Source: a virus
Taxonomy: Duplodnaviria > Heunggongvirae > Uroviricota > Caudoviricetes
IMG/VR virus record: IMGVR_UViG_2698536471_000020
Coordinates: 1-9,675 of that record
Strand: one strand, 5' to 3'
Length of the DNA stretch: 9,675 nucleotides
Of this stretch, positions 1-9,675 are shown piece by piece. The notes below the pieces were generated by a model. The model worked only from the letters and a program-made list of their open reading frames with translations, ran no database searches and had not been told where the DNA came from. Position 1 is the first letter of the stretch. Every line of letters starts with the position of its first letter. The position numbers were made by a program, and so were the translations under genes.

Positions 1-38
1 TGTGCCCCCATCGCGCTGGTGAAGAAAACAAGCTCAGA

Positions 39-253
39 TTTTTTGTAAAGAATCTGTCACGCTAAAAGATGTCGAACAAAAATTAACCACAACCATCATC
101 TTTTTTGCATCAACCACATTAAAAACAACAGGTTACACACATGATGATGATGACGATAAAATCACAAAAATGCGCTTTTTTCCGCGCCGCCCGCCCCGTG
201 TTCATACCCACCCCACCAGGAGGACCCGCAAAAAAGGCGGCTGGTGCCGCCTT
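39..253. repeat. Intergenic module copy A (homologous to 2575-2790); includes the capsid-gene terminator
   Basis: Co-linear shared blocks with copy B: ttttttgtaaa, tcgaaca vs tcgacac, triplet run (ATG)4 at 141-152 vs GTG/ATG run at 2675-2689, aaaaatgcgc, tttttccgcgcc, ccgccccgtg, ccaccaggag, A-tract plus GC hairpin. Weaker similarity may extend to position 1 (window edge). Confidence 0.6.
230..253 (-). terminator. Rho-independent terminator after the protease-capsid gene
   Basis: Minus strand reads AA GGCGGC acca GCCGCC TTTTTT G (stems at 236-241 and 246-251), a few nt after the stop codon at 258-260. Confidence 0.7.
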
Positions 254-257
254 GTTG

Positions 258-2147
258 TCAGAGTGAATCTGTCCCGCCTGATTTGACCATACCGCGATAA
301 TCCAGAGCTGCCACACCTGCATCAATACGGACTTTCCAGGCCACGCCGTCAACGATAAAACCTTCCTGCTGTTCAAGGTAAGGCTCGTCATTGCCATCAA
401 GATAAGCCACCTCGATTGTGTCCGTTCCCTGTGCGGAAAGCATGTACCATTGTTTTTCGCTGATATCATCAAGGCGGGGATCGACGATGATATCAAGTAG
501 CTTGTGGTACGGGTTAAAGATCCCGCTGTTTTTATCAGCCCCGAAAGGTGCGGTTGAGTTAATCATCTGCAACGCGCGATCTTCCAGTGCTGCCGGAACT
601 AAAAGGAATTTAGGCGCAATATTCAGCACTTCGCCATTTTTGTCCTTCTGTGTGCGCATCAGGTGACGTGCTGCACTAAGTCCCGGTGTTGTCAGTCCTG
701 CTTCAATCAGGTTGCTGTGTTTTTTGTCAAACAGCGTTATTCCGTCAGAAAGTTTTACGTTGCCTGTAAGCACCAGATTAACCAGATTTCCCACCGTTCT
801 TGATGCTGCACGGCCCATAGCCATTGGCACCGTTGATAACTGATCAAGGTCATCATTGATTATCGCCTGGCGGGTAATGCTGAAAATATTCCCGTAAGTA
901 GCCAGCGCGATGGGTTCACCGCGATCGCTGGTGGTGATGTATTTATATTCTGCCCCTTCCGGAACTTTGTTTAACGTTGAGAAGCCATTCATACCAACGC
1001 GGCGGGCTTCCCGGAAGTTTGAAAGGGAACCTTTTTTCGTCCACTGGCGGAATGTTTCGCCGCTGTGCTCCCAGCCTGCAAGCACTGATTTTTCAGCGCC
1101 ACCAGCAAGGATATCGGTAAAATCGCTGCTGCTGTGGGTGAATGCCGCGTTTACTATCTGCGAGCGTGTGCTGTAGCTGCCCGTGCTTATACCACGATGG
1201 GTTAATGATGCCTGTGCCATATCGAAAAGGCTCATCATGGCGTAAGGATTACCGCGTTCGGCCCGTTCGTGACCAAGACGCGCATTAAGCCCCTGACGCA
1301 TGGCATCGCCAGTTATATTGCCGTTATCCGTGTACGCGTAGTAAAGATTTGCGGGGGTGGTTTTGTTTGTTGGCGTTGATTCTTTACCCATAGCGAGTAA
1401 AAGGCGTTCGCGTGCATTCTCAACGCTACATTCTGAATCCGCAAGACAACTTATAGCCAGGTCGTTATATCTTCCGTTGAAGGTGCCAAACAATTCACGG
1501 ATGCCGTTAAGTCGTTCCTGTTCGCCACTGCCAGTTTTCTGGCTGATCATGCTTTTAATTTTTTCCGGCATATTTGAAAAATCTCCGATTCGTTTTGATT
1601 CAATTCGGGCCATTGCTGTAATCGCGGGTATAACCTCATCTGCGAAACCGTTAGCCTTACACTCATTGCCATCCATCCAGGTTTCCGCCTCCATCATGGA
1701 GGTGATTTCCTGTTTGCTCCTGCCCGTTCTTCCGGCATAGGTTTCTGCCATCGTGTCGCCCAGCTTGTCCATCAGATCAGCAAAGCGGCGAACGTCGCCC
1801 GACACTCCGGCAGTAACACCACGGGGGGCATGTATCATCATCATCGCGTTTTCAGGCATAACGATATGATCTCCACACATGGCAATAAACGAGGCCATAG
1901 AAGCCGCCATGCCTTCAATGTGTACGATTTTTTTTGCCGGATGATTTTTCAGAGCGTTATAGATAGCCAGCCCTTCAAAGATGTCGCCACCAGGTGAATG
2001 GATGCGAAGATGGATTTCAGACGCATTACCACACGCGTTGATCTCGTCAGTAAGTGCCGATGCTTTTACACCGTACCCGCCGATCTCGTCATAAATGCGC
2101 ACATAGACAACATCTGCCATAGCCTTAATGGAAAACCATGTTTTCAT
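258..2147 (-). CDS. Prohead protease (ClpP/S14-like) fused to a scaffold-like linker and a major capsid protein domain (HK97-type, inferred)
   Basis: 629-aa ORF. N-terminal ~190 aa carries ClpP-type signatures (GMAASMAS serine motif, MMMIHAPRG histidine motif). The C-terminal ~300 aa reads as a capsid-like domain by composition and position, not by a specific motif. Start overlaps the upstream small ORF stop (ATGA). Confidence 0.75.
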   Translation of the reverse strand: MKTWFSIKAMADVVYVRIYDEIGGYGVKASALTDEINACGNASEIHLRIHSPGGDIFEGLAIYNALKNHPAKKIVHIEGMAASMASFIAMCGDHIVMPENAMMMIHAPRGVTAGVSGDVRRFADLMDKLGDTMAETYAGRTGRSKQEITSMMEAETWMDGNECKANGFADEVIPAITAMARIESKRIGDFSNMPEKIKSMISQKTGSGEQERLNGIRELFGTFNGRYNDLAISCLADSECSVENARERLLLAMGKESTPTNKTTPANLYYAYTDNGNITGDAMRQGLNARLGHERAERGNPYAMMSLFDMAQASLTHRGISTGSYSTRSQIVNAAFTHSSSDFTDILAGGAEKSVLAGWEHSGETFRQWTKKGSLSNFREARRVGMNGFSTLNKVPEGAEYKYITTSDRGEPIALATYGNIFSITRQAIINDDLDQLSTVPMAMGRAASRTVGNLVNLVLTGNVKLSDGITLFDKKHSNLIEAGLTTPGLSAARHLMRTQKDKNGEVLNIAPKFLLVPAALEDRALQMINSTAPFGADKNSGIFNPYHKLLDIIVDPRLDDISEKQWYMLSAQGTDTIEVAYLDGNDEPYLEQQEGFIVDGVAWKVRIDAGVAALDYRGMVKSGGTDSL

Positions 2148-2371
2148 AGCCAGACCCCTAACGTTGCCCTGTACCAGTATTCAACCGCGCTGCGTGTGAT
2201 TTGTCCTTTCGTGGGTACTGGCATACCCGGGTGATTATCTTTGATGAACTGCTGATAGCGTTCGATCTTCTCCATAGTTCCGGCGTCTATGTGTACCGTG
2301 GCACTTTTATCCGGCTTTCTGGTGTTGTTCTCTGGCATAAATCCGCCTCCGTTTTGATTAACGGGCATCAT
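2144..2371 (-). CDS. Small hypothetical protein, translationally coupled to the protease-capsid gene (more likely start at 2338, giving 64 aa)
   Basis: ORF stop overlaps capsid ATG (ATGA at 2144-2147). The internal ATG at 2336-2338 is preceded by GGAGG at 7-nt spacing, whereas the ATG at 2371 has no clear SD. Function unknown. Confidence 0.45.
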   Translation of the reverse strand: MMPVNQNGGGFMPENNTRKPDKSATVHIDAGTMEKIERYQQFIKDNHPGMPVPTKGQITRSAVEYWYRATLGVWL

Positions 2372-2533
2372 TATTGATCGATAAAAGCAATAGATAAATC
2401 ATTTTCTACCTAAAAATCAGATTATGATTTTTCTGATTATTCTCAGAGAGGCAAAGTTATTGACGCATTTTTGCCATTGAAGCAGTATTAAGACTCGTCA
2501 TCCTGGCGATAAAAACTCCTTTGTCGTGTAAAA

Positions 2534-2569
2534 GCGCCTCCGGTAACAGCAATCGGGGGCGCTTTTTTT
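2534..2569. terminator. Terminator-like GC hairpin with flanking A/T runs, readable on both strands
   Basis: Plus strand: GCGCCTCCG (2534-2542), 11-nt loop, CGGGGGCGC (2554-2562), then T7 (2563-2569). Preceded by AAAA, so the minus strand also reads hairpin plus TTTT with one C/A mismatch. Confidence 0.5.
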
Positions 2570-2574
2570 GCGCC

Positions 2575-2790
2575 TGTTTTTTGTAAATGTTTTCGGGAAC
2601 GTTCCGGTGATGAACAAAAAACAACCTGATTCGACACTAAAAATTTTTATTTCTCAACATATCAATAACTTATAGTGGTGGTGATGGTGCCATAAAAATC
2701 AAAAAATGCGCCTTTTTCCGCGCCCCTCCGCCCCGTGGACAGGCCACCCCCACCAGGAGTACCTACAAAAAAGCCGGATTGCTCCGGCTT
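2575..2790. repeat. Intergenic module copy B (homologous to 39-253); includes the ssb-operon terminator
   Basis: Same block order as copy A; contains triplet run GTGGTGGTGATGGTG (2675-2689), conserved G-rich block on the minus strand (CTCCTGGTGGGGGTGG...CACGGGGCGG...GCGCGGAAAAAGGCGCATTTTTTG) and terminator hairpin 2773-2788. Confidence 0.6.
2767..2790 (-). terminator. Rho-independent terminator after the SSB-like gene
   Basis: Minus strand reads AA GCCGGA gcaa TCCGGC TTTTTT G; SSB-like stop is at 2805-2807. Confidence 0.7.
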
Positions 2791-2804
2791 CTGTCACTCG
2801 TTGC

Positions 2805-3227
2805 TTAAAACGGTATGTTATCCCCGTACGGATCATCGTTACCCGCCTGTTGTTTTGCCCTGTTCAGTGCGTCAGTAGCCTGCCCCTGCTGGCCTTTTTT
2901 GCCGCCCGGTCGCGCCGTTCTCGCACTGATTACGCTGTCTGCGATAACCTGCCAGCCCTGCCGCGTTTCGCCGTTCTGGCCTGTCCACTGGCTTACCTGC
3001 ATGTTACCCGCCACGCTCACCAGCTCGCCTTTGCGGTGTTTTGCCAGTGCGTCGGCCTGTCTGCCAAACGCCAGGACGGATAACCACATCGTAGCCGTTC
3101 CGTCATCTGCCTGGCTGCACGGCAGGGGGACAGCCATACTCGCCATCGTCATTTGTGTGCCCTTGCTGGTGGTCTTTAACTGTGGGTCAGCCACCAGCCG
3201 CCCGTAAGCCGCTATCTGTGCTGTCAT
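2805..3227 (-). CDS. ssb: Single-stranded DNA-binding protein (SSB-like, OB fold with acidic C-terminal tail)
   Basis: 140-aa ORF. The pattern GRLVADPQLK...WLSVLAFGRQADALAKHRKGELVSVAGNMQVSQWTGQNGETRQGWQVIADSV parallels the E. coli SSB OB-fold core; Gly/Gln-rich linker; C-terminus DDPYGDNIPF resembles the canonical SSB DDDIPF tip. ATG overlaps the upstream ORF stop (ATGA). Confidence 0.75.
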   Translation of the reverse strand: MTAQIAAYGRLVADPQLKTTSKGTQMTMASMAVPLPCSQADDGTATMWLSVLAFGRQADALAKHRKGELVSVAGNMQVSQWTGQNGETRQGWQVIADSVISARTARPGGKKGQQGQATDALNRAKQQAGNDDPYGDNIPF

Positions 3228-3502
3228 GATTCCACCTCTACGTTTTTAACGTTGATGGTTGTCACCTGTTCAGCTTCCGCAATCTCCCGCTCTGTCAGCG
3301 TGGCAAAATTTGCCGCCGTCGTGGTCATGAATGCGCTTATCAGGTCGGGATGTTCCTTCGCGTATCCTTCCCCCGCGTGGCGGTCTATCGTTCTGATTGC
3401 CACCTTTAAAGCGTGCTCTGTCATGTCTAACGCGCGATATTTCGGTTCTGTTCTGTCTCTGTGTTTTTTGAGTGATTTATTAAATTTCCCTGAAGTGTGC
3501 AT
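3224..3502 (-). CDS. Hypothetical protein (92 aa from the ATG at 3502), translationally coupled to ssb-like
   Basis: The track ORF extends to 3553, but the ATG at 3500-3502 is preceded by GAGGGGG and the longer form would run into the iteron array. Function unknown. Confidence 0.45.
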   Translation of the reverse strand: MHTSGKFNKSLKKHRDRTEPKYRALDMTEHALKVAIRTIDRHAGEGYAKEHPDLISAFMTTTAANFATLTEREIAEAEQVTTINVKNVEVES

Positions 3503-3550
3503 ATTTATTTTTACCCCCTCGTTTAAAAAGTTTTGAGTTGTGCCTCCCCC

Positions 3551-3775
3551 CATCTACCCATCTACCCGAATGCTCATCATGTCAGTAATGGCGCGGCTTT
3601 CAGCGGGTAGATAGCTTTTTTGGCTCCTCTACCTGCCGTCTACCCTGCTACCTGAAACTGATAAAATCAGGTAGAAGAGGTAGAGAGCTTTTATTAGCCT
3701 TCTACCTGGCCCTCTACCCACTTATCATGTTGAATAATATACGTTTATTTCATTCAGGTAGATGGGGTAGAGGGC
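3551..3775. repeat. Iteron array / putative replication origin
   Basis: At least 11 copies of the hexamer GGTAGA/TCTACC in alternating orientation, in pairs: TCTACC at 3553, 3561, 3628, 3639, 3701, 3713; GGTAGA at 3606, 3670, 3679, 3757, 3766; plus near-copy GCTACC at 3647. Longer unit GGTAGAKRGCTTTT three times; AT-rich spacers. Lies directly 3' of the primase-helicase gene. Confidence 0.65.
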
Positions 3776-3787
3776 TTTTACAAAAAA

Positions 3788-5542
3788 TTATAAAAACGCG
3801 TCGCAATCGTCTGTTGTAATTGCGTTGGTCTGCGTTACTCCCTTAACTTTTCGCGTAATATATTCATGCCCGTAAACTTTCGCCGCTGGCTTCATGGCCT
3901 TGCTGAACTCAGCCACGTTTAGCGGTTTGCTCCTGCCTGCGTATGCCATAAACGCCAGATAGACGCGGTAAAGGCTGTTCCTGGTCGTGTACTTCACTGA
4001 ATCACCACCGCCACCCATCATCAGGCCGCGCGCTTCCTCCAGAAAATTCAGGAACTGGCAAAACTCAATAACCGGATCCGTCTGTTGCTTTATTGCCAGT
4101 GCTTCATCACCGTCACGCTGTTCCAGTAGTAAAGCCCTCGCCTTTTCAGGGTCGGTAAAGTTCGCCAGCAAGCGGCGGATAATAACGGGGATTTCAGCCG
4201 CAATTTTTTCCGGTAGTTCCCTGTCTTTTTCGGCCTCACTAACAATATTGTCGAAACGGAAAATCACGCGACGACGTGCCACACCTCCGGCCCGTTCGGT
4301 GAATATCATCGGGTTATTATTGGTCGCCAGCACCACCGCCCTGATTACCGCCGTGAAACGCTTTTCATATTTCGGGTTTATTTCCACGGGGTCGCCGCCC
4401 GTGATTTTCTTGATGCCCGTTCCTTCGCCTGTATATTTCGGCTGGTCTGCTAGGACGATAAGACGACTCCCGACAACCTGCGCACGTCCACCAGCATCAT
4501 CAAGCGATGTCATTTCAGCGCTTACCGTGTTCTGTTTCCCTGCCAGAAGGCTGGCTATGTGTGTGAATGTACTTTTACCGCTCCCGCCGTCTCCGGTGGC
4601 CTCAATAAACATCTGCCAGTCGTACCGGTTCGCCATAATCATGTACAGCGCGGCACATATACGCATCATCTTGCGCGGGTCTTTTCCGGCTGCGTGCTCA
4701 AGCCATTTATGAAAGTTTGGCGCGTTGTCGCGGATATTCTCCCCTGGTGCTGGTGGCGTGTACTCAATGCCGTTGTGCGTGGTGATCCAGTTCTCCGGCG
4801 TGTGCGGGGAAAATTCCCCCGTTTTCAGGTCAAGCGCACCATTGGCGAACGGCAGCAAATCGCCGGACGGCTCGCCCATTGGTTCGGCAATAACTTTTAA
4901 CGCTTCCACGGCGTTATTGATTACGCGCTTGCTGAAAGTGGCCCTGTGCTCTGAATAGATCGCCACCATTTCGCGGCTAAGTTCCATTGTGCTGACCGGA
5001 CACCATACCCCGCCGCGCCATACGTGAACAATTTCACTTTCAGGATGTACGCAAACGCCATCAAAGCGATCGGCAAGCAGCTGCGCGCGCTCACTGTCCG
5101 CCATCTGCGAAAGTTGCGCCTTTTGCTTTACCGGAAGCTCAATGACCAGACCATCAGAAAGATTCTGGCGTTCACGGGCCAGGTATTCGCGCCAGTTCTG
5201 CACCTCCTTGCCGTGCATACCCTCAGGATAAAAATTTGCATCCTGTACACCAGCCGCCGCCAGCTTTTGACCAATCGCCTTTATCATTACTGGTGCAAGA
5301 TATCCGGCCCTGAATATGCGCACGGATTTTCTGCCTTCCGGCACAATTTGCAGCTTATCCAGTTCTGATAACTGCTGCTCCCCAAGCCACACAGGAGGCT
5401 CATTATCTCCGGCCATACGCGCGTCATGTTCCTGCCATTGTTTTGCGTGTGACCAGGCATCACTACCCGCAAAAATAATGACTTCTGTTTCTTTGTGTTT
5501 TATGCCGCGTGACTGCTGTTTTACGTTCGGTGCCAGTTTCAT
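3788..5542 (-). CDS. Replication protein: primase / SF3-type helicase (P4 alpha C-terminal / D5-like family)
   Basis: 584-aa ORF with Walker A P-loop GDGGSGKST and downstream hydrophobic stretch LIVLAD (Walker B-like); size and position (after alpA and small genes, before origin iterons) as for satellite pri/rep genes. ATG overlaps the upstream ORF stop (ATGA at 5539-5542). Confidence 0.8.
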   Translation of the reverse strand: MKLAPNVKQQSRGIKHKETEVIIFAGSDAWSHAKQWQEHDARMAGDNEPPVWLGEQQLSELDKLQIVPEGRKSVRIFRAGYLAPVMIKAIGQKLAAAGVQDANFYPEGMHGKEVQNWREYLARERQNLSDGLVIELPVKQKAQLSQMADSERAQLLADRFDGVCVHPESEIVHVWRGGVWCPVSTMELSREMVAIYSEHRATFSKRVINNAVEALKVIAEPMGEPSGDLLPFANGALDLKTGEFSPHTPENWITTHNGIEYTPPAPGENIRDNAPNFHKWLEHAAGKDPRKMMRICAALYMIMANRYDWQMFIEATGDGGSGKSTFTHIASLLAGKQNTVSAEMTSLDDAGGRAQVVGSRLIVLADQPKYTGEGTGIKKITGGDPVEINPKYEKRFTAVIRAVVLATNNNPMIFTERAGGVARRRVIFRFDNIVSEAEKDRELPEKIAAEIPVIIRRLLANFTDPEKARALLLEQRDGDEALAIKQQTDPVIEFCQFLNFLEEARGLMMGGGGDSVKYTTRNSLYRVYLAFMAYAGRSKPLNVAEFSKAMKPAAKVYGHEYITRKVKGVTQTNAITTDDCDAFL

Positions 5543-5838
5543 TTTTTACCCCTGAATACGTTAAGCATCTTTTTTATTTCCTGAATATTGGCGCGTGCTT
5601 TCTCCCTGCTGGTGGGCTTGCTGCGTTGCGCTGCCTGCACCAGAGAAAAATCACGGTCGAACTGATAAACGGGCATCACGCAATCATATTCGTAACCTTC
5701 ACGGAGGTAAGTTACGCACCGTCCCGCCACGCCCTTAATCATTACCGTGCCGCCGTACTGGTCGCGGTAAATATCACCGCGCGTAAATTTAGGGTGAGTG
5801 TTGCCACTGGCAGTTAAGCCAGAATATTTAAGTTTCAT
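5539..5838 (-). CDS. Hypothetical protein (99 aa), translationally coupled to the primase gene
   Basis: ORF with GGAGA Shine-Dalgarno about 9-10 nt upstream of the ATG; ATGA overlap with primase start. No motif recognised. Confidence 0.55.
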   Translation of the reverse strand: MKLKYSGLTASGNTHPKFTRGDIYRDQYGGTVMIKGVAGRCVTYLREGYEYDCVMPVYQFDRDFSLVQAAQRSKPTSREKARANIQEIKKMLNVFRGKK

Positions 5839-5843
5839 TATTT

Positions 5844-6074
5844 TTATTCTCCGGTGTGGGGCGCGTTATTATTTTCGTGAATTGCCATTGCCTTATCCAG
5901 TTCATCAATAACAGGCGATAGTAATGTCTGAATGGCTGCAAACATTAATACACCTGATTCCTCACCACCTTCCGGCACTTCAATTAATTTAATTAACAAC
6001 GCATTCATTTCGCGTGCTTTAATTAATGCGTTTTCAGAGTGGATTAATACTTCAAAAGGGATTTTATGCATCAC
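5844..6074 (-). CDS. Hypothetical small acidic protein (76 aa), in an AT-rich segment
   Basis: ORF preceded by AAGGGAG; predicted helical, many Glu/Asp. Local sequence is visibly more AT-rich than flanking genes (GC not computed). Confidence 0.45.
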   Translation of the reverse strand: MMHKIPFEVLIHSENALIKAREMNALLIKLIEVPEGGEESGVLMFAAIQTLLSPVIDELDKAMAIHENNNAPHTGE

Positions 6075-6294
6075 AAATTTTCTCCCTTATTCTTTTAATG
6101 TCCTCATTAAGGATGTCTGTAACTTTTATCAGCGAGTTTTTGGCAATTATTTTTATTGTTTTAAGTTTTCTTTTGTCGTGCTCCGACTGTGATTTTCTCT
6201 CCATAATCTCCACCATGTGGGTAACATCAACGAGCGCACGTATCAGTATTTGCATTGCTTCTTCTGCTGCGTCCGGTGTGGTTTTATTGTGCAT
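6064..6294 (-). CDS. Hypothetical small protein (76 aa), in an AT-rich segment; overlaps the downstream ORF by 11 nt
   Basis: ORF preceded by AGGGGA; Lys/Glu-rich helical composition. No motif recognised. Confidence 0.45.
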   Translation of the reverse strand: MHNKTTPDAAEEAMQILIRALVDVTHMVEIMERKSQSEHDKRKLKTIKIIAKNSLIKVTDILNEDIKRIREKICDA

Positions 6295-6496
6295 AAAGCA
6301 TCCCCTGAATATTCGTGTTAATCATTCCGGCACGTTTTGTGATTTCCTGTAATGATTCCCTTGTGGCGACAATTGCTTCATCTGGTAAGTGGTAATTACA
6401 CACCACGCGACCTTTATCCACATTGACCAGTAGCTGCCCTGTGAATTTCTCACGAAACTGAATGCGGTTAAGGTCAGTAAGTGACAGATTAATCAT
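6284..6496 (-). CDS. Hypothetical protein (70 aa from the ATG at 6496), start overlaps the icd-like stop
   Basis: Strong SD AGGAGG 6 nt upstream of the ATG at 6494-6496; ATGATTAA start/stop overlap with the icd-like gene. The track ORF start at 6538 lies inside icd-like and lacks an SD. Confidence 0.5.
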   Translation of the reverse strand: MINLSLTDLNRIQFREKFTGQLLVNVDKGRVVCNYHLPDEAIVATRESLQEITKRAGMINTNIQGMLYAQ

Positions 6497-6677
6497 GGCG
6501 CACCTCCTGACGAATACGGGCGGCAAATACAGCAACACAACCGGACGGGCAACGGTTACGCGCTTCGCGTTCCGTCCAGGCGGTTACGTGGATGATTTGA
6601 TGTTCTGACGCGCCAAAGATGATAAAGCGCCAGAGAAAGGCGGTTTGAGAATGTACAAGGGTAGGGATAGTAGCCAT
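6489..6677 (-). CDS. Icd-like small protein (host cell division inhibitor Icd-like family, 62 aa)
   Basis: It is the C-terminal tail of the 416-codon track ORF, but a strong SD (GAGGAGG) sits 8 nt upstream of the internal ATG at 6675-6677. Sequence MATIPTLVHSQTAFLWRFIIFGASEHQIIHVTAWTEREARNRCPSGCVAVFAARIRQEVRHD fits the remembered Icd-like pattern (F-W-RF ... ERxAR ... FAARxP/Q-E); family assignment is from memory, not a search. Confidence 0.6.
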   Translation of the reverse strand: MATIPTLVHSQTAFLWRFIIFGASEHQIIHVTAWTEREARNRCPSGCVAVFAARIRQEVRHD

Positions 6678-6839
6678 GTTGGCAGCCTCCTCAGTGTGGT
6701 TAAGATAACCGCCACCGGAAACGCCAATTTCGCTGGTGGCGGACTGTACAGGGTTGGCGTAACCGGACACTGAAGAAACCGGCGCGGATTGCTCCGCCCC
6801 CGTACAGCCCACCATTGATAAGGTGTGACTATGCGGCAC

Positions 6840-6861
6840 AAAAAAACACGCGGGGCGCGTG
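6840..6861 (-). terminator. Rho-independent terminator inside the leader upstream of icd-like
   Basis: Minus strand reads CACGCG ccc CGCGTG followed by TTTTTTT (plus-strand A-run 6840-6846, stems 6847-6852 and 6856-6861). Confidence 0.7.
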
Positions 6862-7103
6862 TTATGCGCTTCAGTTTTGCCCAGGACGCCAATCCCGGCA
6901 CCCGTTTTATGAGGTGCGCGGGAATCATAGCCATTTTTGCTGGTGGCGATCAACTGGTTTTTTACACCCGCTTTATTCAGGTTGTGTGAGTCCCGCCCTT
7001 GCGGGTGTGTGGTATGATTTCTCATAGCTACCTCGATACTTTCGCTATCGTTGGTGGTCAGAGGCTGCGAAAGGACGGCAATCCTTTTCAGCCTCGTTTG
7101 CAT

Positions 7104-7207
7104 TGAGTGATAAACACTCAGCTGGATTCCAGTATAATCACTAAGTGGAATCCACTTCAAGCGTTTTGTTTTGGTCTTTTTCGTGTATACTGGATTCCAG
7201 TAATCAC
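7104..7207. promoter_or_regulatory. Divergent promoter/operator region with three TGGAWTCCA palindromes
   Basis: Palindromes CTGGATTCCAG (7122-7132), AAGTGGAATCCACTT (7143-7157), CTGGATTCCAG (7190-7200); extra inverted repeat TGAGTG-ataaa-CACTCA (7104-7120). Minus-strand promoter TTGAAG (7160-7155), 18-nt spacer, TATACT (7136-7131) overlaps the plus-strand TATAAT (7133-7138). Direct repeat CTGGATTCCAGTA(T)AATCAC at 7122-7142 and 7190-7207. Confidence 0.6.
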
Positions 7208-7221
7208 AAAGGGAACCAGAA

Positions 7222-7401
7222 ATGGAAAGAGACCATATCAATAACAAATCACAGAAATTACAGGCTCGCGCCCCGCATGAAGTTGTTGAGGCTATGGAGC
7301 AAGTAAAAGAAACAGGCGAGAGCACTGCGCAATTTATCGTTACAGCCATGCGAGGCGAGATCAAACGCCGCCAGCGCCGTAAGGCCAAAGAATCAGAATA
7401 A
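7222..7401 (+). CDS. Small ribbon-helix-helix-like DNA-binding protein (59 aa; below the ORF-track size cut-off)
   Basis: ATG at 7222 with AGGGA about 8 nt upstream, TAA at 7399-7401. Translation MERDHINNKSQKLQARAPHEVVEAMEQVKETGESTAQFIVTAMRGEIKRRQRRKAKESE has an RHH-like layout (basic strand RAPHEVV, two short helices, basic tail). Sits immediately downstream of the operator palindromes. Confidence 0.45.
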   Translation: MERDHINNKSQKLQARAPHEVVEAMEQVKETGESTAQFIVTAMRGEIKRRQRRKAKESE

Positions 7402-7458
7402 TCACTATCAGCGCCGTGGTGTGAGGTACTACGGCGCATTGCTTTACAGGGCAGTACC

Positions 7459-7686
7459 ATGACTAACAACACACTATCACCAATACAAGACACGCAAACG
7501 CAAGATGATGAAATCATCCGGCAAAGGCAGTCAGAAGCCTGCGCCAGAGTTGAGGAAGAACTAACCAGAACAAAAATACCACCACCAGCGCCGCGCTTAA
7601 TGCCACCAGAAAAATTTGCCCTTGAAGATTTTGTCGAGAAATACCCACGGCGGTTAAAAGCCACTAAAAACCGACCGCCTGGCTGA
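7459..7686 (+). CDS. Hypothetical protein (75 aa), possibly co-transcribed with the RHH-like gene
   Basis: ORF with protein-like charged composition but a weak SD. A hairpin GCGCCGT (7411-7417) / ACGGCGC (7431-7437) lies between it and the RHH gene. Convergent with alpA. Confidence 0.3.
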   Translation: MTNNTLSPIQDTQTQDDEIIRQRQSEACARVEEELTRTKIPPPAPRLMPPEKFALEDFVEKYPRRLKATKNRPPG

Positions 7687-7832
7687 TAGCCTTGTCCACC
7701 AGCTACGGCGGTGCTAAGATTGAAAGCTGCATAAGTCATGAAATAAACTCCTTAGCGGTGCATACGCGCCGCTTCTTTCTTCACGAACAACTACAAACAA
7801 AAACACGGACGGAATTTAAAGAATGAATATTC

Positions 7833-8027
7833 TTAATTGACGCGTTCGCGGTTTTTGACCCACGCCACAACCTCAGACTTAACCCAGCCAACAGAACGAC
7901 CGCCGAGACTGATACGGGAAGGGAAGCGGCCCTGCTTTTCCATCTCGTAACGAGTTGTGCGGCAAACGCCTGTTAGCTCTCTGCATTCTTTTTCGCGGAT
8001 TACACGATCTTCATTTATTTCGCGCAT
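7833..8027 (-). CDS. alpA: AlpA-family transcriptional regulator / excisionase-like protein
   Basis: 64-aa ORF; HTH followed by GGRSVGWVKSEVVAWV matches the AlpA (Phage_AlpA) pattern; located directly downstream of the integrase on the same strand. Confidence 0.8.
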   Translation of the reverse strand: MREINEDRVIREKECRELTGVCRTTRYEMEKQGRFPSRISLGGRSVGWVKSEVVAWVKNRERVN

Positions 8028-8360
8028 AAAAAGCCCTACATAAAATTACGTATAGAAATTTTTGTTTCGCTGTGGATATACGGAAAGAGATTACTTCTTA
8101 GCTTTTCTTACCTCTTAAATTGAAGGCGTAACCTTGCCAAAAGCTATGCTCGCCAAGGTTCGCAAGGGTTCGTTGTTGTTCATAAAATCGTTGCACACCA
8201 GGAAAGACAATTCAACATTAAAATTCCCTCTACAGTGAGGGATAATTAAAAAAACAAATTAAAACAGTCACATAAAAGCATGCACTTTGAAATAAAGGAA
8301 AATATTAAAACTCAAGTAGACAATCGCTGTTTTCAAATTTTTTCAATACTTGACACATAT

Positions 8361-8393
8361 AAATCGTCGATATTTGCCGATATTCGACGATTT
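8361..8393. promoter_or_regulatory. Inverted repeat in the int-alpA intergenic region (candidate regulator binding site)
   Basis: Perfect 10-bp arms AAATCGTCGA (8361-8370) and TCGACGATTT (8384-8393), extending to about 13-bp arms with one indel; consensus TTGACA at 8350-8355; region 8040-8436 is AT-rich. Confidence 0.4.
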
Positions 8394-8436
8394 ATTTTAG
8401 AGGGCCATTTTTCGCAAGAAAAACAGCCGTAATTTG

Positions 8437-9675
8437 TCAAGAATTTTGAGAGTAAATTCGCGGGGTCATAACAACGATTTTTTCATCATTGTTCTGGAGA
8501 AGCTCGAGACGCTCAACCCATAGATTAAGAGCGTCACGTTTTGCATCGAGATAACGGGAGTGATTATAGACTCGTTGCACTCCTGGCAACTGGTGCGCGG
8601 TTAGCTGCTCCACTACATGAGGATCCACGCCTAAATCGTTCAGCATCGTTGTAAACGTGTGCCGGATGTCGTGCAACGTCCAGGGGGCTTGATTAATGCG
8701 TCTGTGTGCCGTTCTTCCGTACTCTGATACAGATGATTGCCCTTTCAGTTCTCCGAGCAATAAGCCTGTATGCCTGTTCTGCTCAACCAGCTGCGTGACG
8801 AACGGCAAGATCGCTTCCGGTATAGGCCGGAATATTGCTACCTTCGTTTTGCTGTGCTCCTTCGGAACGGTCCAGAGCATTTCTTTAAAATCCCATTCCT
8901 GGACCTCAGAGCGTCTTAGCTCAGTGGTACGGCATCCGAAGACAATCAGGAGGCGAATCAGGGCGCTGTAGTACGGTGGGTAAATTTTTTCATCCAGGGC
9001 GCGGAGTAATTCCCCAAGCTCCTTGTTTGTTAGTACGCGCTGGCTTATTTCTGCTTTTTTCCCAACATCACCGACAACCATATCATCAAGAACGTTGCTG
9101 ATTGCGTAGCGTCGTTTGCGGCAGTACTTAAGCGCCTGCTTGCATACCTGCAACAAAAAACCTGCTGATACCGGATTACGCTTAGCAAGCTGATCAAAAC
9201 AGGTCAGCCAGTGGCGTAGCTCGCATTTTTCCAGCGGCATAGCACCAATCTGGCTGATTATGTGTGTATTGATCCGGCTCTTCAGAGATTCGTAGTCTGT
9301 GCGCTTTTCCTTCGCGTACGATTCAAGCCAGTAAGTGAGCGCTTCCTTAACCGTAACAGGTGATAACGCTTCCTGTACGGTGTGATTAAGCTCATGGCGT
9401 GGATTTTTCCCCTCAGCAAGCCAGGCGCGACACTGCGCCGCTTTTTCCCTGGCTGCTTTCAGGCTCAAATCAGGATAATTTCCCAGCCTCAGACGTTCAG
9501 GGGATACCTTCCTGCCTGTTCCGGCCCTGTAAGTGAAATACCAGGTTAACAGGCCATTGGTTGAATGCCTTACGCTAAGGTTGCCACCATCATTAAAAAA
9601 GGTGTTTTTTGTGGTTGGTGATCCGCTTAATTTTCGTAAAAGAGTGTCGCTAAGTCTATGAATTGCCCTGCTCAT
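8437..9675 (-). CDS. int: Tyrosine-type site-specific integrase (P4-type, arm-binding N-terminal domain)
   Basis: 412-aa ORF with catalytic-domain signatures in the translation: GCRTTELRRSE (box I Arg), LHDIRHTFTT (H-x-x-R), VYNHSRYLD (catalytic Tyr region). The ATG is the last 3 nt of the window, so the true start and the att site cannot be verified. Confidence 0.85.
   Translation of the reverse strand: MSRAIHRLSDTLLRKLSGSPTTKNTFFNDGGNLSVRHSTNGLLTWYFTYRAGTGRKVSPERLRLGNYPDLSLKAAREKAAQCRAWLAEGKNPRHELNHTVQEALSPVTVKEALTYWLESYAKEKRTDYESLKSRINTHIISQIGAMPLEKCELRHWLTCFDQLAKRNPVSAGFLLQVCKQALKYCRKRRYAISNVLDDMVVGDVGKKAEISQRVLTNKELGELLRALDEKIYPPYYSALIRLLIVFGCRTTELRRSEVQEWDFKEMLWTVPKEHSKTKVAIFRPIPEAILPFVTQLVEQNRHTGLLLGELKGQSSVSEYGRTAHRRINQAPWTLHDIRHTFTTMLNDLGVDPHVVEQLTAHQLPGVQRVYNHSRYLDAKRDALNLWVERLELLQNNDEKIVVMTPRIYSQNS

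Follow-up and report, generated by a model that had tools for sequence, protein, structure and literature searches.

Among Gram-negative phage-inducible chromosomal islands (PICIs), EcCICFT073 encodes a Pri-Rep protein whose role in replication and transfer has been demonstrated by experiment, together with a capsid and a head-decoration homologue, and PICI origins are placed 3' of pri (PMC6092414). Deletion of the EcCICFT073 capsid gene, which is of the lambda gpE type and non-homologous to the one described below, changed neither transfer nor interference (PMC6092414), and a role for PICI capsid genes in head assembly is therefore no more than putative. Such genes are found in 21 of 29 reference Gram-negative PICIs (PMC10111431), and the SatelliteFinder PICI model counts 'capsid morphogenesis' among its core components (PMC10085698). 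PICIs with a CLP_protease late gene (Tommasini et al. 2023) and isrK/C4 matches in Gram-negative PICIs (PMC10111431; Tommasini et al. 2023) have also been published. Capsid-forming PICIs (cf-PICIs) are defined by portal, adaptor/connector, HNH, terS and terL genes (bioRxiv 10.1101/2022.09.08.507074), and SatelliteFinder separates them from PICIs by their portal/connector/terminase components (PMC10085698). E. coli PICIs and P4 have been argued to be distinct families (Fillol-Salom et al.).

The window analysed here, a 9,675-nt stretch of DNA, is an exact match to positions 2473-12147 of E. coli contig L005, in which the complete island spans 11.03 kb at an intergenic att site between cspD/yljB and clpS. 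The direct repeat ATGATAGTTAT[C/T]TATCA borders the island and is present as a single copy in the empty K-12 site, which together define the island ends. Both att repeats (core length 17-21 bp) are intact, the empty K-12 site is precise, and both copies lie outside the window, attL some 170-190 nt past its end at 9675 and attR roughly 1.2 kb ahead of its first base. EcCIIHE3034 and EcCI18098, for which the cspD-clpS site has been tabulated (PMC6092414 Table S1), have the identical att core ATGATAGTTAT and insertion site. The capsid gene is followed by a single 93-aa gene (orf93), ~0.9 kb of non-coding sequence, then attR and clpS, and outside the att repeats there are host genes only. Since no terS, terL, portal, connector, tail or lysis gene was found among the contig genes of the complete island or its flanks, the island is neither a cf-PICI nor a prophage. 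The second att copy, together with flanks devoid of tail, lysis and full replication modules, bears out the initial annotation in its reading of an integrative phage satellite rather than a prophage or plain integrative element. We conclude with high confidence that the window represents ~88% of a classical Gram-negative PICI of the EcCICFT073/EcCIIHE3034 family from E. coli, with putative P4/P1-type RNA control and predicted helper-type cos sites (Table 1); the island is a new mosaic PICI of an already known classical family.

Table 1 Features of the island within the 9,675-nt window, listed from the integrase end.
Feature	Position	Strand	Basis
Tyrosine integrase, 412 aa; leftmost island gene	8437..9675	-	Pfam Phage_integrase + Arm-DNA-bind_3
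AT-rich int-alpA spacer	8028..8436	-	GC 34% in 8001-8500
alpA, PICI activator, 64 aa	7833..8027	-	PF05930, E=4.7e-16
Small divergent ORF, 75 aa	7459..7686	+	gene call in contig L005
YlcI/YnfO-family small gene, 59 aa	7222..7401	+	NF041551, E=2.4e-20
Divergent promoter-like region	7100..7165	.	consensus matches
isrK-type RNA	6841..6917	-	Rfam RF01394, 66 bits vs gathering score 50, E=1e-12
C4-type antisense immunity RNA	6732..6819	-	Rfam RF01695, 77.6 bits vs gathering score 45, E=2.8e-14, full-length
Icd-like (P4 Kil-like) ORF, 62 aa	6489..6677	-	NF033153, E=9e-15
Cluster of four small overlapping genes	5539..6496	-	DUF4222 profile; PHROG families of unknown function
orf70 (cluster)	6284-6496	-	
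orf76a (cluster)	6064-6294	-	
orf76b (cluster)	5844-6074	-	
DUF4222 gene (cluster)	5539-5838	-	DUF4222, E=1e-22
Pri-Rep primase-helicase, 584 aa	3788..5542	-	D5_N, DUF5906, Pox_D5; TIGR01613 P4-family primase C-terminal domain
Predicted replication origin, 11 GGTAGA/TCTACC iterons around AT-rich core	3553..3771	.	repeat count
Conserved 92-aa gene, upstream of ssb	3224..3502	-	phrog_1231, E=7e-49
Single-stranded DNA-binding protein (SSB), 140 aa, C-terminus DNIPF	2805..3227	-	PF00436, E=3.7e-16
Predicted cos site A: terminator hairpin, degenerate cosQ, cosN CACGGGGCGGAGGGGCGCGG, cosB of CP-1639 / 1720a-02 type	2604..2790	-	
orf64, satellite-specific small gene	2144..2338	-	phrog_4934, E=9e-51
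ClpP-like prohead protease / scaffold-like linker / HK97-fold major capsid fusion, 629 aa	258..2147	-	NF045540, 889.8 bits vs cut-off 475
Predicted cos site B: terminator hairpin, cosQ GGGTCCT, cosN CACGGGGCGGGCGGCGCGG, cosB of Stx2_95 / VT1-Sakai type	66..250	-	

Every core gene is full-length, and the gene order is that of EcCICFT073 and EcCIIHE3034, in keeping with the Gram-negative PICI layout initially proposed; PICIs whose mobility has been shown by experiment have the identical architecture. Protein identities to EcCICFT073 are 98.5% for pri, 78% for int, 76% for DUF4222, 71% for ssb and 86% for orf93, and those to EcCIIHE3034, which occupies the same att site, are 93.7% for int, 90% for pri and 91% for ssb. 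AlpA is 78% identical to its EcCIIHE3034 and 59% to its EcCICFT073 counterpart, and the spacer between int and alpA is the presumed site of a helper-responsive alpA promoter, after the PalpA experiments in EcCICFT073 (PMC6092414). Within the small-gene cluster, which gave no defence-system match, the DUF4222 protein shares 76-85% identity with its counterparts in three reference PICIs. The elements that the initial annotation listed on one strand (int, alpA, leader, Icd-like ORF, primase-helicase, iterons, SSB and protease-capsid) are all present where it placed them, on the minus strand, but the genes at 7222-7401 and 7459-7686 lie on the plus strand. The former is followed by a hairpin without a T-run (7411-7437) and has a YlcI/YnfO-family counterpart in the equivalent place in both EcCICFT073 and EcCIIHE3034; the latter had no family match in profile searches, and a translated region of EcCI11128 is 65% identical to it. 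A 416-aa ORF at 6489-7739, taken from a mechanical ORF list, was rejected as a gene.

Twelve copies of GGTAGA were counted in the window, where 2.1 are expected; 11 of these fall within 3553-3771, and none of 200 shuffled windows reached 12. This region, directly after pri and inside a DNA block that is 89% identical in EcCICFT073, is the predicted replication origin. The 92-aa gene upstream of ssb encodes a product 71% identical to its counterparts in EcCICFT073 and EcCIIHE3034. By homology to EcCICFT073, where this step was shown experimentally, a lambdoid helper phage would switch on alpA, and AlpA would then activate the island. Int would excise it at the att core, for which the repeats and empty site are observed, and Pri-Rep, aided by the island SSB, would replicate it from the iteron origin; we infer induction, excision, replication and transfer of this island by homology.

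The leader preceding the replication genes contains matches to two RNA families. The isrK-type RNA, a relative of P4 seqA, includes an intrinsic terminator (6863-6845), and the C4-type RNA, a relative of P1 C4 and P4 CI, is accompanied both upstream and downstream by a UUGGCG motif complementary to its loop ACGCCAA. These matches mark the structured leader as a putative isrK/C4 immunity-RNA pair of P4/P1 type. An in-frame 178-aa 'Ash' ORF (6489-7025) overlaps both RNA genes in an arrangement resembling P4 eta: Phage_ASH matches its residues 33-126, directly over the RNA genes, and the NF033153 match covers residues 130-173, the best start for the Icd-like ORF being the ATG at 6677 with a GAGGAGG ribosome-binding site ahead. 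The divergent promoter-like region holds a plus-strand site at 7111-7138 (TAAACA/TATAAT, 10/12 consensus), a minus-strand site at 7160-7131 and, as a possible operator, a 24-bp tandem repeat (7110-7154). While the island is at rest, the immunity RNA would keep the early (replication) operon off: transcripts started at the promoter-like site near 7160 would pass the isrK/seqA-like element and be terminated or blocked by the C4/CI-like RNA, as suggested by the RNA-family matches and by P4 and P1 biology. EcCICFT073, EcCIIHE3034 and the closest complete-genome relative all lack the C4/isrK module, so that the proposed repression by RNA is not general among PICIs.

The duplicated intergenic module noted initially is real (~156-197 and ~2692-2733) and, judged by its sequence, is a pair of cos sites, each a copy of the cos of a different lambdoid (Stx-type) phage lineage. 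Site A has ~90% identity over 167 nt to the DNA that directly precedes terS in phages CP-1639 and 1720a-02, and the lambda-type cos of EcCICFT073 and its helper aligns with it. Site B has 94% identity over ~122 nt to non-coding DNA that lies 115 bp ahead of terS in VT1-Sakai and in Stx2-converting phages, an alignment that extends to about window position 66; the mEp460_4F5 genome record starts exactly at the aligned CACGGGGCGG. In Gifsy-2/mEp460-type lambdoid phages with matching cos, a homologous fusion capsid gene lies ~4.5 kb downstream of cos. The identity of the cos sites is observed, and it suggests that the helper's own terminase would cut and package island concatemers via the two complete cosQ-cosN-cosB copies, with portal, tails and lysis also provided by the helper. 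The carriage of two helper-type cos sites would account for the lack of an Rpp or TerS gene on the island, in contrast to EcCICFT073. With two direct cos sites at a distance of 2.5 kb, sub-genomic cuts are possible in principle, and this counts against the explanation.

The fusion protein comprises a CLP_protease domain (residues 41-173) and a Phage_capsid_4 domain (residues 330-623, E=1e-54), is 51% identical to its homologues in Stx2 phages and mEp460, and belongs to a satellite-specific lineage; in type it is a Gifsy-2/mEp460 protease-scaffold-capsid fusion. Its dN/dS of 0.04-0.10 in all three domains shows that the gene is under purifying selection. The stop of orf64 (dN/dS 0.08) overlaps the capsid gene start (ATGA); homologues of orf64 (39-69% identity) were found in six other genera, in every case immediately ahead of a satellite-type fusion gene, and in no prophage context. 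The fusion, the duplicated module and the leader, which the initial annotation could not assign to a named family, can all be named (Gifsy-2/mEp460-type fusion, cos sites and isrK/C4 RNAs). Its suggestion of a possibly undescribed satellite variant is not supported: CLP_protease-bearing PICIs and isrK/C4 matches in PICIs are already in Tommasini et al. 2023; nor does an own capsid gene set the island apart from classical PICIs, as it had supposed, since EcCICFT073 and 21 of the 29 reference PICIs have one.

We propose that the fusion and its coupled partner orf64 form a conserved satellite-specific late module that most likely interacts with the assembly of helper heads, whether by redirecting their size, as SaPIbov5 Ccm does, or through interference; of the steps in our explanation, this one is the least certain. 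A more specific reading, which we consider rather unlikely, is that the two proteins form satellite-specific, probably smaller procapsids on the helper portal, which the helper terminase fills from the island cos; the island would then stand midway between classical PICIs and cf-PICIs. Several observations speak for it: protease, scaffold-like and capsid parts are joined in one polypeptide with the protease motifs GMAASMA and MMIHAP intact; each domain is under the selection described above; no phage copy more than 60% identical was found among 50,697 phage genomes; the lineage, along with orf64, has been conserved in six other genera, in PICI context throughout; and the protease-scaffold linker carries a 35-aa deletion relative to helper proteins. 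The SaPIbov5 Ccm protein, as cited in PMC6092414, provides a precedent for a satellite capsid homologue giving small capsids. Against this, there is no satellite portal or connector, so that compatibility with the helper portal would be needed.

That the locus is instead a decaying prophage remnant or plain genomic island, which kept its capsid gene and lost mobility, is very unlikely. It is small, lacks lysis and tail genes and has many hypothetical genes, and RefSeq annotates pseudogenes in relatives (such as an internal stop in ssb in RM12581); yet the att repeats, empty site, full-length core genes, capsid-gene selection and architecture described above all argue against decay. Furthermore, the late cassette recurs with 99.3-99.7% DNA identity at three or more att sites, where the integrase and replicase backbones differ, and therefore points to recent mobility and module exchange. 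It is extremely unlikely that the island is a P4-like satellite dependent on P2-type helpers: an integrase with AlpA/Vis, the P4-family primase C-terminal domain (TIGR01613), the CI-like immunity RNA (C4/isrK) and the Eta/Kil-like ORF arrangement (PMC10111431) fit this, but the cos sites match lambdoid phages rather than P2, the capsid gene is lambdoid (Gifsy-2/mEp460 type), and profile searches of the window found no psu, delta or sid homologue, so that, without a sid-psu-delta operon, the island falls outside the SatelliteFinder P4-like definition. The cf-PICI reading of the initial annotation, by which the island makes capsids of its own, fills them by means of its own terminase and borrows helper tails alone, has a probability close to nil, for although int, alpA and pri are as in cf-PICIs and the protease and capsid gene is full-length and under selection, gene content refutes it (no portal, head-tail adaptor/connector, HNH, terS or terL between the att repeats, barring genes hidden in the ~0.9-kb tail without a called gene) and the island measures 11.0 kb against a cf-PICI median of ~14 kb and 15.4 kb for EcCIEDL933. 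The search of the flanks suggested in the initial annotation thus speaks against its own cf-PICI reading.

For the classical PICI that we favour, the capsid cassette was found at ≥80% coverage in 143 of 5,426 complete E. coli genomes. In Kluyvera and Rahnella, relatives of the cassette sit physically inside the fusion gene of Gifsy-2/mEp460-type prophages, at the published C:CLP_protease:110 site (Tommasini et al. 2023).

The entire window is contained as an exact match in the E. coli contig L005 (GCA_008633665.1), one of many E. coli contigs on which the capsid protein is identically encoded. In L005, the element to which the window belongs is 11.03 kb long and lies between cspD/yljB and clpS. 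Extension of the contig in search of a second att copy, as proposed in the initial annotation, uncovered the direct repeat ATGATAGTTAT(C/T)TATCA at each end of this island (L005 2285-2305 and 13318-13338), and a comparison of both junctions with K-12 identified a single copy in the empty site. EcCIIHE3034 and EcCI18098 are listed with exactly this att core, ATGATAGTTAT, and this insertion site (Fillol-Salom et al. 2018, Table S1). Integration at a tRNA or tmRNA gene, which had been mentioned as frequent, was ruled out: ARAGORN found no tRNA in the window, and the island is inserted in intergenic DNA at the 3' end of yljB. Only ~170 nt separate int from attL, while the end past the capsid gene holds a gene for a 93-aa protein (orf93), then ~0.9 kb without called genes, attR and clpS.

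A mechanical ORF listing together with family scans (Pfam, PHROG, NCBIfam) was used to generate the gene inventory, and confirmed every gene that had been named from the sequence. The accompanying description of these genes as all lying on one strand holds for the named genes, int, alpA and the main genes being co-oriented on the minus strand, but not for two small genes of the regulatory zone, which are divergent, as in EcCICFT073. The proposed origin iterons are likewise real, with 11 of the 12 GGTAGA copies in the window (2.1 expected) falling within 3553-3771, the 220-bp gap directly 3' of pri. The Pri-Rep protein itself narrowly exceeds the cut-off for TIGR01613 (109.1 versus 108.7 bits). 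A 416-aa ORF at 6489-7739 was rejected as a gene, as it crosses two RNA genes and a promoter region and runs antisense to two genuine genes. PADLOC returned no matches to defence systems among ten small proteins.

Features of the island within the window, with the evidence for each
Feature	Position	Strand	Evidence
Integrase	8437-9675	-	ORF listing, family scans
alpA	7833-8027	-	ORF listing, family scans
75-aa ORF	7459-7686	+	ORF listing
YlcI/YnfO-family gene	7222-7401	+	ORF listing, family scans
isrK-type RNA with terminator	6841-6917	-	Rfam RF01394, full-length match, 66 (gathering threshold 50)
C4 antisense RNA	6732-6819	-	Rfam RF01695, full-length match, 77.6 (gathering threshold 45)
Icd-like ORF, 62 aa	ends at 6489	-	Family scans
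Four small overlapping genes, including DUF4222 gene	5539-6496	-	ORF listing, family scans
Primase-helicase Pri-Rep (D5_N/DUF5906/P4-family)	3788-5542	-	Family scans
92-aa gene (orf92) and SSB gene	2805-3502	-	ORF listing, family scans
cos A	~2604-2790	-	~90% identical over 167 nt to the terS-upstream region of CP-1639 and 1720a-02
orf64, 64 aa	2144-2338	-	ORF listing, family scans
ClpP-protease/major-capsid fusion, 629 aa	258-2147	-	NF045540, 889.8 bits (cut-off 475)
cos B	~66-250	-	94% identical over ~122 nt to a non-coding stretch of Stx2-converting phages and VT1-Sakai

The island displays the sequence features by which Gram-negative phage-inducible chromosomal islands (PICIs) have been defined (Fillol-Salom et al. 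2018): an att site with direct repeats, int at one end followed by alpA, a primase-replicase of its own next to which, on the 3' side, lies an iteron origin, a length within the range of ~8-15 kb without tail, lysis, portal or large-terminase genes, and a putative helper-exploiting packaging signal in the form of two lambdoid-type cos modules. In the published definition, these stand beside induction by a helper phage, high-frequency transfer and interference with that helper. The PICI model of SatelliteFinder has int, a regulator (alpA), pri-rep, capsid morphogenesis and terS as its core, and forbids tail, holin, portal and head-tail connector/adaptor components (de Sousa et al. 2023, PMC10085698). 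Using Pfam, PHROG and NCBIfam families in place of SatelliteFinder's own profiles, we found four of the five core functions, with terS absent, and no forbidden component; the element would be expected to be classed by this model as a PICI short of one core component, and not as a capsid-forming PICI.

The presence of a capsid gene had led to a comparison with capsid-forming PICIs (cf-PICIs), and the parts that could not be assigned to a named family to the suggestion of an undescribed satellite variant. As in the cf-PICI EcCIEDL933 (Alqurainy et al.), there is an int-alpA-pri left half together with a major capsid protein and a head-maturation protease, here fused in one protein. However, cf-PICIs additionally encode a portal, head-tail connectors, HNH, TerS and TerL and make their own capsids, and portal, connectors and terL are what sets them apart in SatelliteFinder (PMC10085698; bioRxiv 10.1101/2022.09.08.507074). 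No portal or head-tail adaptor/connector gene lies between attL and attR, terS, terL and HNH are all absent from the island, and a phage portal query found matches in prophage contexts only (tblastn). The possibility of a P4-like satellite draws on the alpha-type primase-helicase (TIGR01613) and the CI immunity RNA (C4, isrK), both of which are common to PICIs too and not exclusive to P4; no island protein has a Pfam, PHROG or NCBIfam match to Psu, Delta or Sid of the psu-delta-sid operon that P4-like satellites carry. A complete prophage is excluded by the lack of tail, lysis, terminase and full replication modules in an att-bounded element that is flanked by cspD/macAB and clpS/clpA. When the contig was extended to look for phage genes, as had been recommended, terS, terL, portal, connector, tail and lysis genes proved to be missing from the element, from its flanks in the exact source contig L005 and from two complete-genome relatives, which confirms the satellite identification and rules out both prophage and cf-PICI. 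The reading as an undescribed variant is not supported; the island is a new mosaic member of a published kind, the classical E. coli PICI family of EcCICFT073. For annotation, this means that an island that looks capsid-forming can be filed correctly as a classical PICI of this family, the call between PICI and cf-PICI being made by reading to the att repeats and checking for portal, connector and terL.

To place the island among named PICIs, the sequences of EcCICFT073 and EcCIIHE3034 were taken from their genomes for comparison. EcCICFT073, the model Gram-negative PICI from E. coli CFT073 (Fillol-Salom et al. 2018, 2019), is, like the island, ~11 kb long, and the two have in common the order int, alpA, a divergent ylcI-like gene, an icd-like gene, small genes, DUF4222, pri-rep, iteron origin, orf92, ssb, a late module with a capsid homologue, two cos sites and a terminal 93-aa gene. 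EcCIIHE3034 has the same gene order as the island. Protein identities vary along this shared backbone: Pri-Rep is closer to that of EcCICFT073 (98.5%, versus 90% for EcCIIHE3034), whereas Int (78% versus 93.7%), SSB (71% versus 91%), DUF4222 (76% versus 82%) and the orf93 product (86% versus 88%) are closer to those of EcCIIHE3034. EcCICFT073 differs from the island in its att site (ycfD-phoQ rather than cspD-clpS) and in its late module, which contains lambda gpE-like capsid and gpD-like decoration genes together with RppA, and lambda-type cosN sites in inverted orientation with a non-helper cosB. In the island, the capsid gene is instead a protease-scaffold-capsid fusion, Rpp is missing, and the two cos sites are in direct orientation, each with a helper-copying cosB. 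EcCIIHE3034 also differs in its late zone, where a gene annotated as terminase small subunit accompanies capsid and decoration genes of the lambda type. Tommasini, Mageeney and Williams (2023) described PICIs as organised in four zones, with immunity RNAs and late genes that were captured, a scheme that the island fits exactly, and the late zone of their E. coli CLP_protease PICIs holds a CLP_protease-family gene, as does that of the island. The published CLP_protease genotype, however, occupies tRNA-Ile2, is without alpA and is distinctive in its integrase (Tommasini et al. 2023), whereas the island combines the same late cassette with EcCIIHE3034-type int/alpA and EcCICFT073-type pri.

Capsid genes are found in 21 of 29 reference Gram-negative PICIs (PMC10111431), and EcCICFT073 encodes the capsid homologue c1499 and a head-decoration homologue, with deletion of c1499 affecting neither transfer nor interference (PMC6092414). 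A capsid gene as such does not make the island special; what differs is the type of late module. The three reference PICIs compared possess other capsid types rather than the protease fusion, and a protease-type capsid gene finds no mention in the 2018 supplementary tables (Fillol-Salom et al.). The fusion protein matches NF045540 over its full length, with a CLP_protease domain at residues 41-173 and Phage_capsid_4 at 330-623, and retains the protease motifs GMAASMA and MMIHAP in alignment with those of phage homologues; in solved structures, a sequence match was obtained for the ClpP domain only. The same architecture of ClpP-like protease, linker/scaffold and HK97-fold capsid, colinear over the full length, is present in lambdoid phages of the Gifsy-2/mEp460 type, including many Stx phages, to whose proteins the island protein is ~51% identical, the sole change in length being a 35-aa deletion in the island's protease-scaffold linker. 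The Gifsy-2 capsid gene has reportedly been described as tripartite (Effantin et al. 2010). Whereas the gene follows terS-terL-portal in these phages, in the island it follows orf64, a satellite-specific gene that is conserved across genera and whose stop overlaps the start of the fusion gene.

The fusion gene of the island belongs to a satellite-specific lineage under selection. Between island copies with differences at 5-9% of synonymous sites, no more than a handful of amino acids are changed, with dN/dS of 0.04-0.10 in the protease, linker and capsid parts, and no phage among 50,697 genomes carries a copy that is more than 60% identical. When one genome per species was scanned across genera, every copy with at least 57% identity lay behind an orf64 homologue in an int/alpA/pri context (Kluyvera, Yersinia, Buttiauxella, Moellerella, Rahnella), and copies with at most 52% identity followed portal genes in nearly all loci, usually with terS and terL. 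Two loci of the scan, L022 (Kluyvera genomosp. 1, 2-15149) and L089 (Rahnella victoriana, 132-10932), are helper-embedded PICIs. In L022, prophage terL and portal genes and the first ~114 residues of the prophage fusion gene are followed by a satellite running from int-alpA to orf64 and its own fusion gene (61% identical to that of the window), after which the rest of the prophage fusion gene resumes from residue ~103; L089 has the same left-hand junction, its locus stopping before the remainder of the prophage gene. The split point near residue 110 is the published C:CLP_protease:110 site (Tommasini et al. 2023). As these satellites split the fusion gene of their helper, the cassette is physically linked to helpers that carry the homologous gene.

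Within E. coli, the late cassette (cos A, orf64, the fusion gene and cos B; window 1-2789) is 99.3-99.7% identical at the DNA level across seven further loci (L003, L004 and L006-L010), with 99.6% in L004 and L010. The islands that carry it occupy three att sites (cspD-clpS, yejM/tRNA-Pro and a site next to mug-rpoD), have different integrases and use three replicases (D5_N primase, DUF927 and AAA_25/RepA). The near-identity of the cassette on such different backbones and att sites points to its recent exchange between PICI backbones. We take the mug-rpoD-adjacent site of L004 and L010 to be the tRNA-Ile2 site of Tommasini et al. (2023). At a coverage of at least 80%, the cassette was found in 143 of 5,426 complete E. 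coli genomes (~2.6%), many of them STEC.

The initial annotation had also noted a duplicated intergenic module that it could not name. The duplication was borne out, as a 42-nt repeat inside two modules of ~190 nt, one on either side of the orf64-capsid gene pair, and its matches to lambdoid phages identify the modules as two cos sites. The phage counterpart of cos B lies 115 bp upstream of terS in the Stx2-converting phages and VT1-Sakai. A joint alignment revealed cosQ and cosN to be common to cos A, cos B and these phages, and both elements to be matched, more distantly, in EcCICFT073 and its helper, which have a lambda-type cos. In mEp460_4F5, the aligned CACGGGGCGG is exactly where the genome record starts. 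The two modules are not simple duplicates: rightward of cosN, cos A follows the cosB of CP-1639/1720a-02 and cos B that of Stx2_95/VT1-Sakai. The cos-matching phages have a homologous fusion capsid gene ~4.5 kb downstream of cos, behind terS-terL-portal. EcCICFT073 needs Rpp to redirect TerS to its foreign cosB (PMC6739421). No Rpp or TerS homologue was detected, either by tblastn of the island proteins against EcCICFT073 or in the family scans of these proteins, and mimicry of complete helper cos sites, including cosB, is plausibly the reason why the island has no Rpp. The cos module alone matches several hundred more genomes, including O157:H7 and other STEC. As a mosaic, the island joins to its PICI backbone exact copies of cos sites from two Stx-phage lineages and a capsid-protease gene that is satellite-specific and strongly conserved. 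Helpers of two lineages may therefore be able to package one and the same island, which could answer the question, raised in the literature, of why there are two cos sites in some PICIs (PMC6739421, PMC6092414), and islands bearing the cassette are likely to ride on Shiga-toxin-converting phages, with which they may also interfere.

A further unassigned part was an attenuation leader. The leader is real, but it does not lack a family, as it contains C4 and isrK RNAs scoring above the Rfam gathering thresholds. A strong ribosome-binding site lies 3' of these RNAs, ahead of the Icd-like ORF, and copies of a UUGGCG motif, complementary to the C4 loop, bracket C4. The Pfam Phage_ASH match (residues 33-126 of a 178-aa ORF at 6489-7025, minus strand) falls exactly over the isrK and C4 genes and the intrinsic terminator; this is either a P4 eta-like ORF that overlaps the immunity RNAs, or an "Ash family protein" that is a translation of RNA genes. 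The isrK/C4 insert is absent from EcCICFT073, EcCIIHE3034 and the relative locus L001, and the short Icd-like genes of EcCICFT073, EcCIIHE3034 and EcCI11128 have the same first 18 codons (94-100% identical) without the ~107-codon insert. The P4 eta/CI/seqA/kil arrangement, and C4 and isrK matches in several Gram-negative PICIs, have been described previously (Tommasini et al. 2023). As in P4 (CI/seqA in eta-kil) and P1 (c4-icd-ant), an isrK/seqA-like and a C4/CI-like RNA precede an Icd/Kil-like ORF, with both RNAs inside a longer Ash/Eta-like reading frame, a putative immunity system. Unlike in P1, no ant gene follows, and the operon runs on into the PICI replication genes. Upstream, 1.9 tandem copies of the 24-bp unit ATAAACACTAAGCTGGAATCCAGT (window 7110-7154) lie between divergent promoter-like sites that face the ylcI-like gene and the isrK/C4/icd operon; this repeat may be an operator.

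The sequence itself shows the att repeats with their empty counterpart in K-12, a PICI backbone with its iteron origin, both helper-type cos sites, the immunity-RNA module and an intact, conserved fusion gene. By analogy with experimentally studied homologues, a helper phage would induce alpA, AlpA would activate the island, Int would excise it and Pri-Rep would replicate it from the iterons, after which the helper terminase would package concatemers from the island cos sites into helper-encoded virions. What capsid genes do in Gram-negative PICIs is an acknowledged question (PMC6739421, PMC6092414), for which, as for that of the paired cos sites, the cassette is a good test case. Our preferred guess is that the fusion protein and the orf64 product interact with helper head assembly, through either size redirection or interference. 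A single-sequence AlphaFold2 model of the orf64 product (pLDDT 64) has two helices and is too weak for a fold search; from its sequence, the protein could be a DNA-binding protein of the ribbon-helix-helix type. The cassette of orf64 and fusion gene extends from Escherichia to Yersinia, Rahnella and Moellerella, and its divergence from the capsid genes that the respective helper phages carry is always ~50%. A bolder reading, which we regard as rather unlikely, is that it represents a satellite-specific head lineage that builds satellite-owned, probably smaller, shells on the helper portal, with the two helper-matched cos sites allowing a single island to be packaged by two Stx-type phage lineages. 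If true, the cassette would be a missing intermediate between classical PICIs, whose capsids come entirely from the helper, and cf-PICIs, which take only tails from it, and would give both a function to the long-unexplained PICI capsid genes and a reason for two cos sites.

Outside the window, just inside the two ends of the island, L005 carries an imperfect 73-nt repeat (2384-2456 and 13185-13257) with TTGTTCG repeats and the motif GGTGTAGTTAATGGTGTAGTTAATT; these are probably arm-type sites of the integrase. The same motif is given as the "att core" of EcCIDI14 (Fillol-Salom et al. 2018, Table S1). No Rfam family was matched in the 1.35 kb that follow the capsid gene. The stretch without called genes between orf93 and attR (L005 12430-13340) is highly structured: besides short hairpins and several palindromes that contain GTTAAC, it has a direct repeat of 44 nt (12422-12465 and 12554-12597). 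At the equivalent position, EcCIIHE3034 has an annotated 89-aa ORF on the reverse strand.
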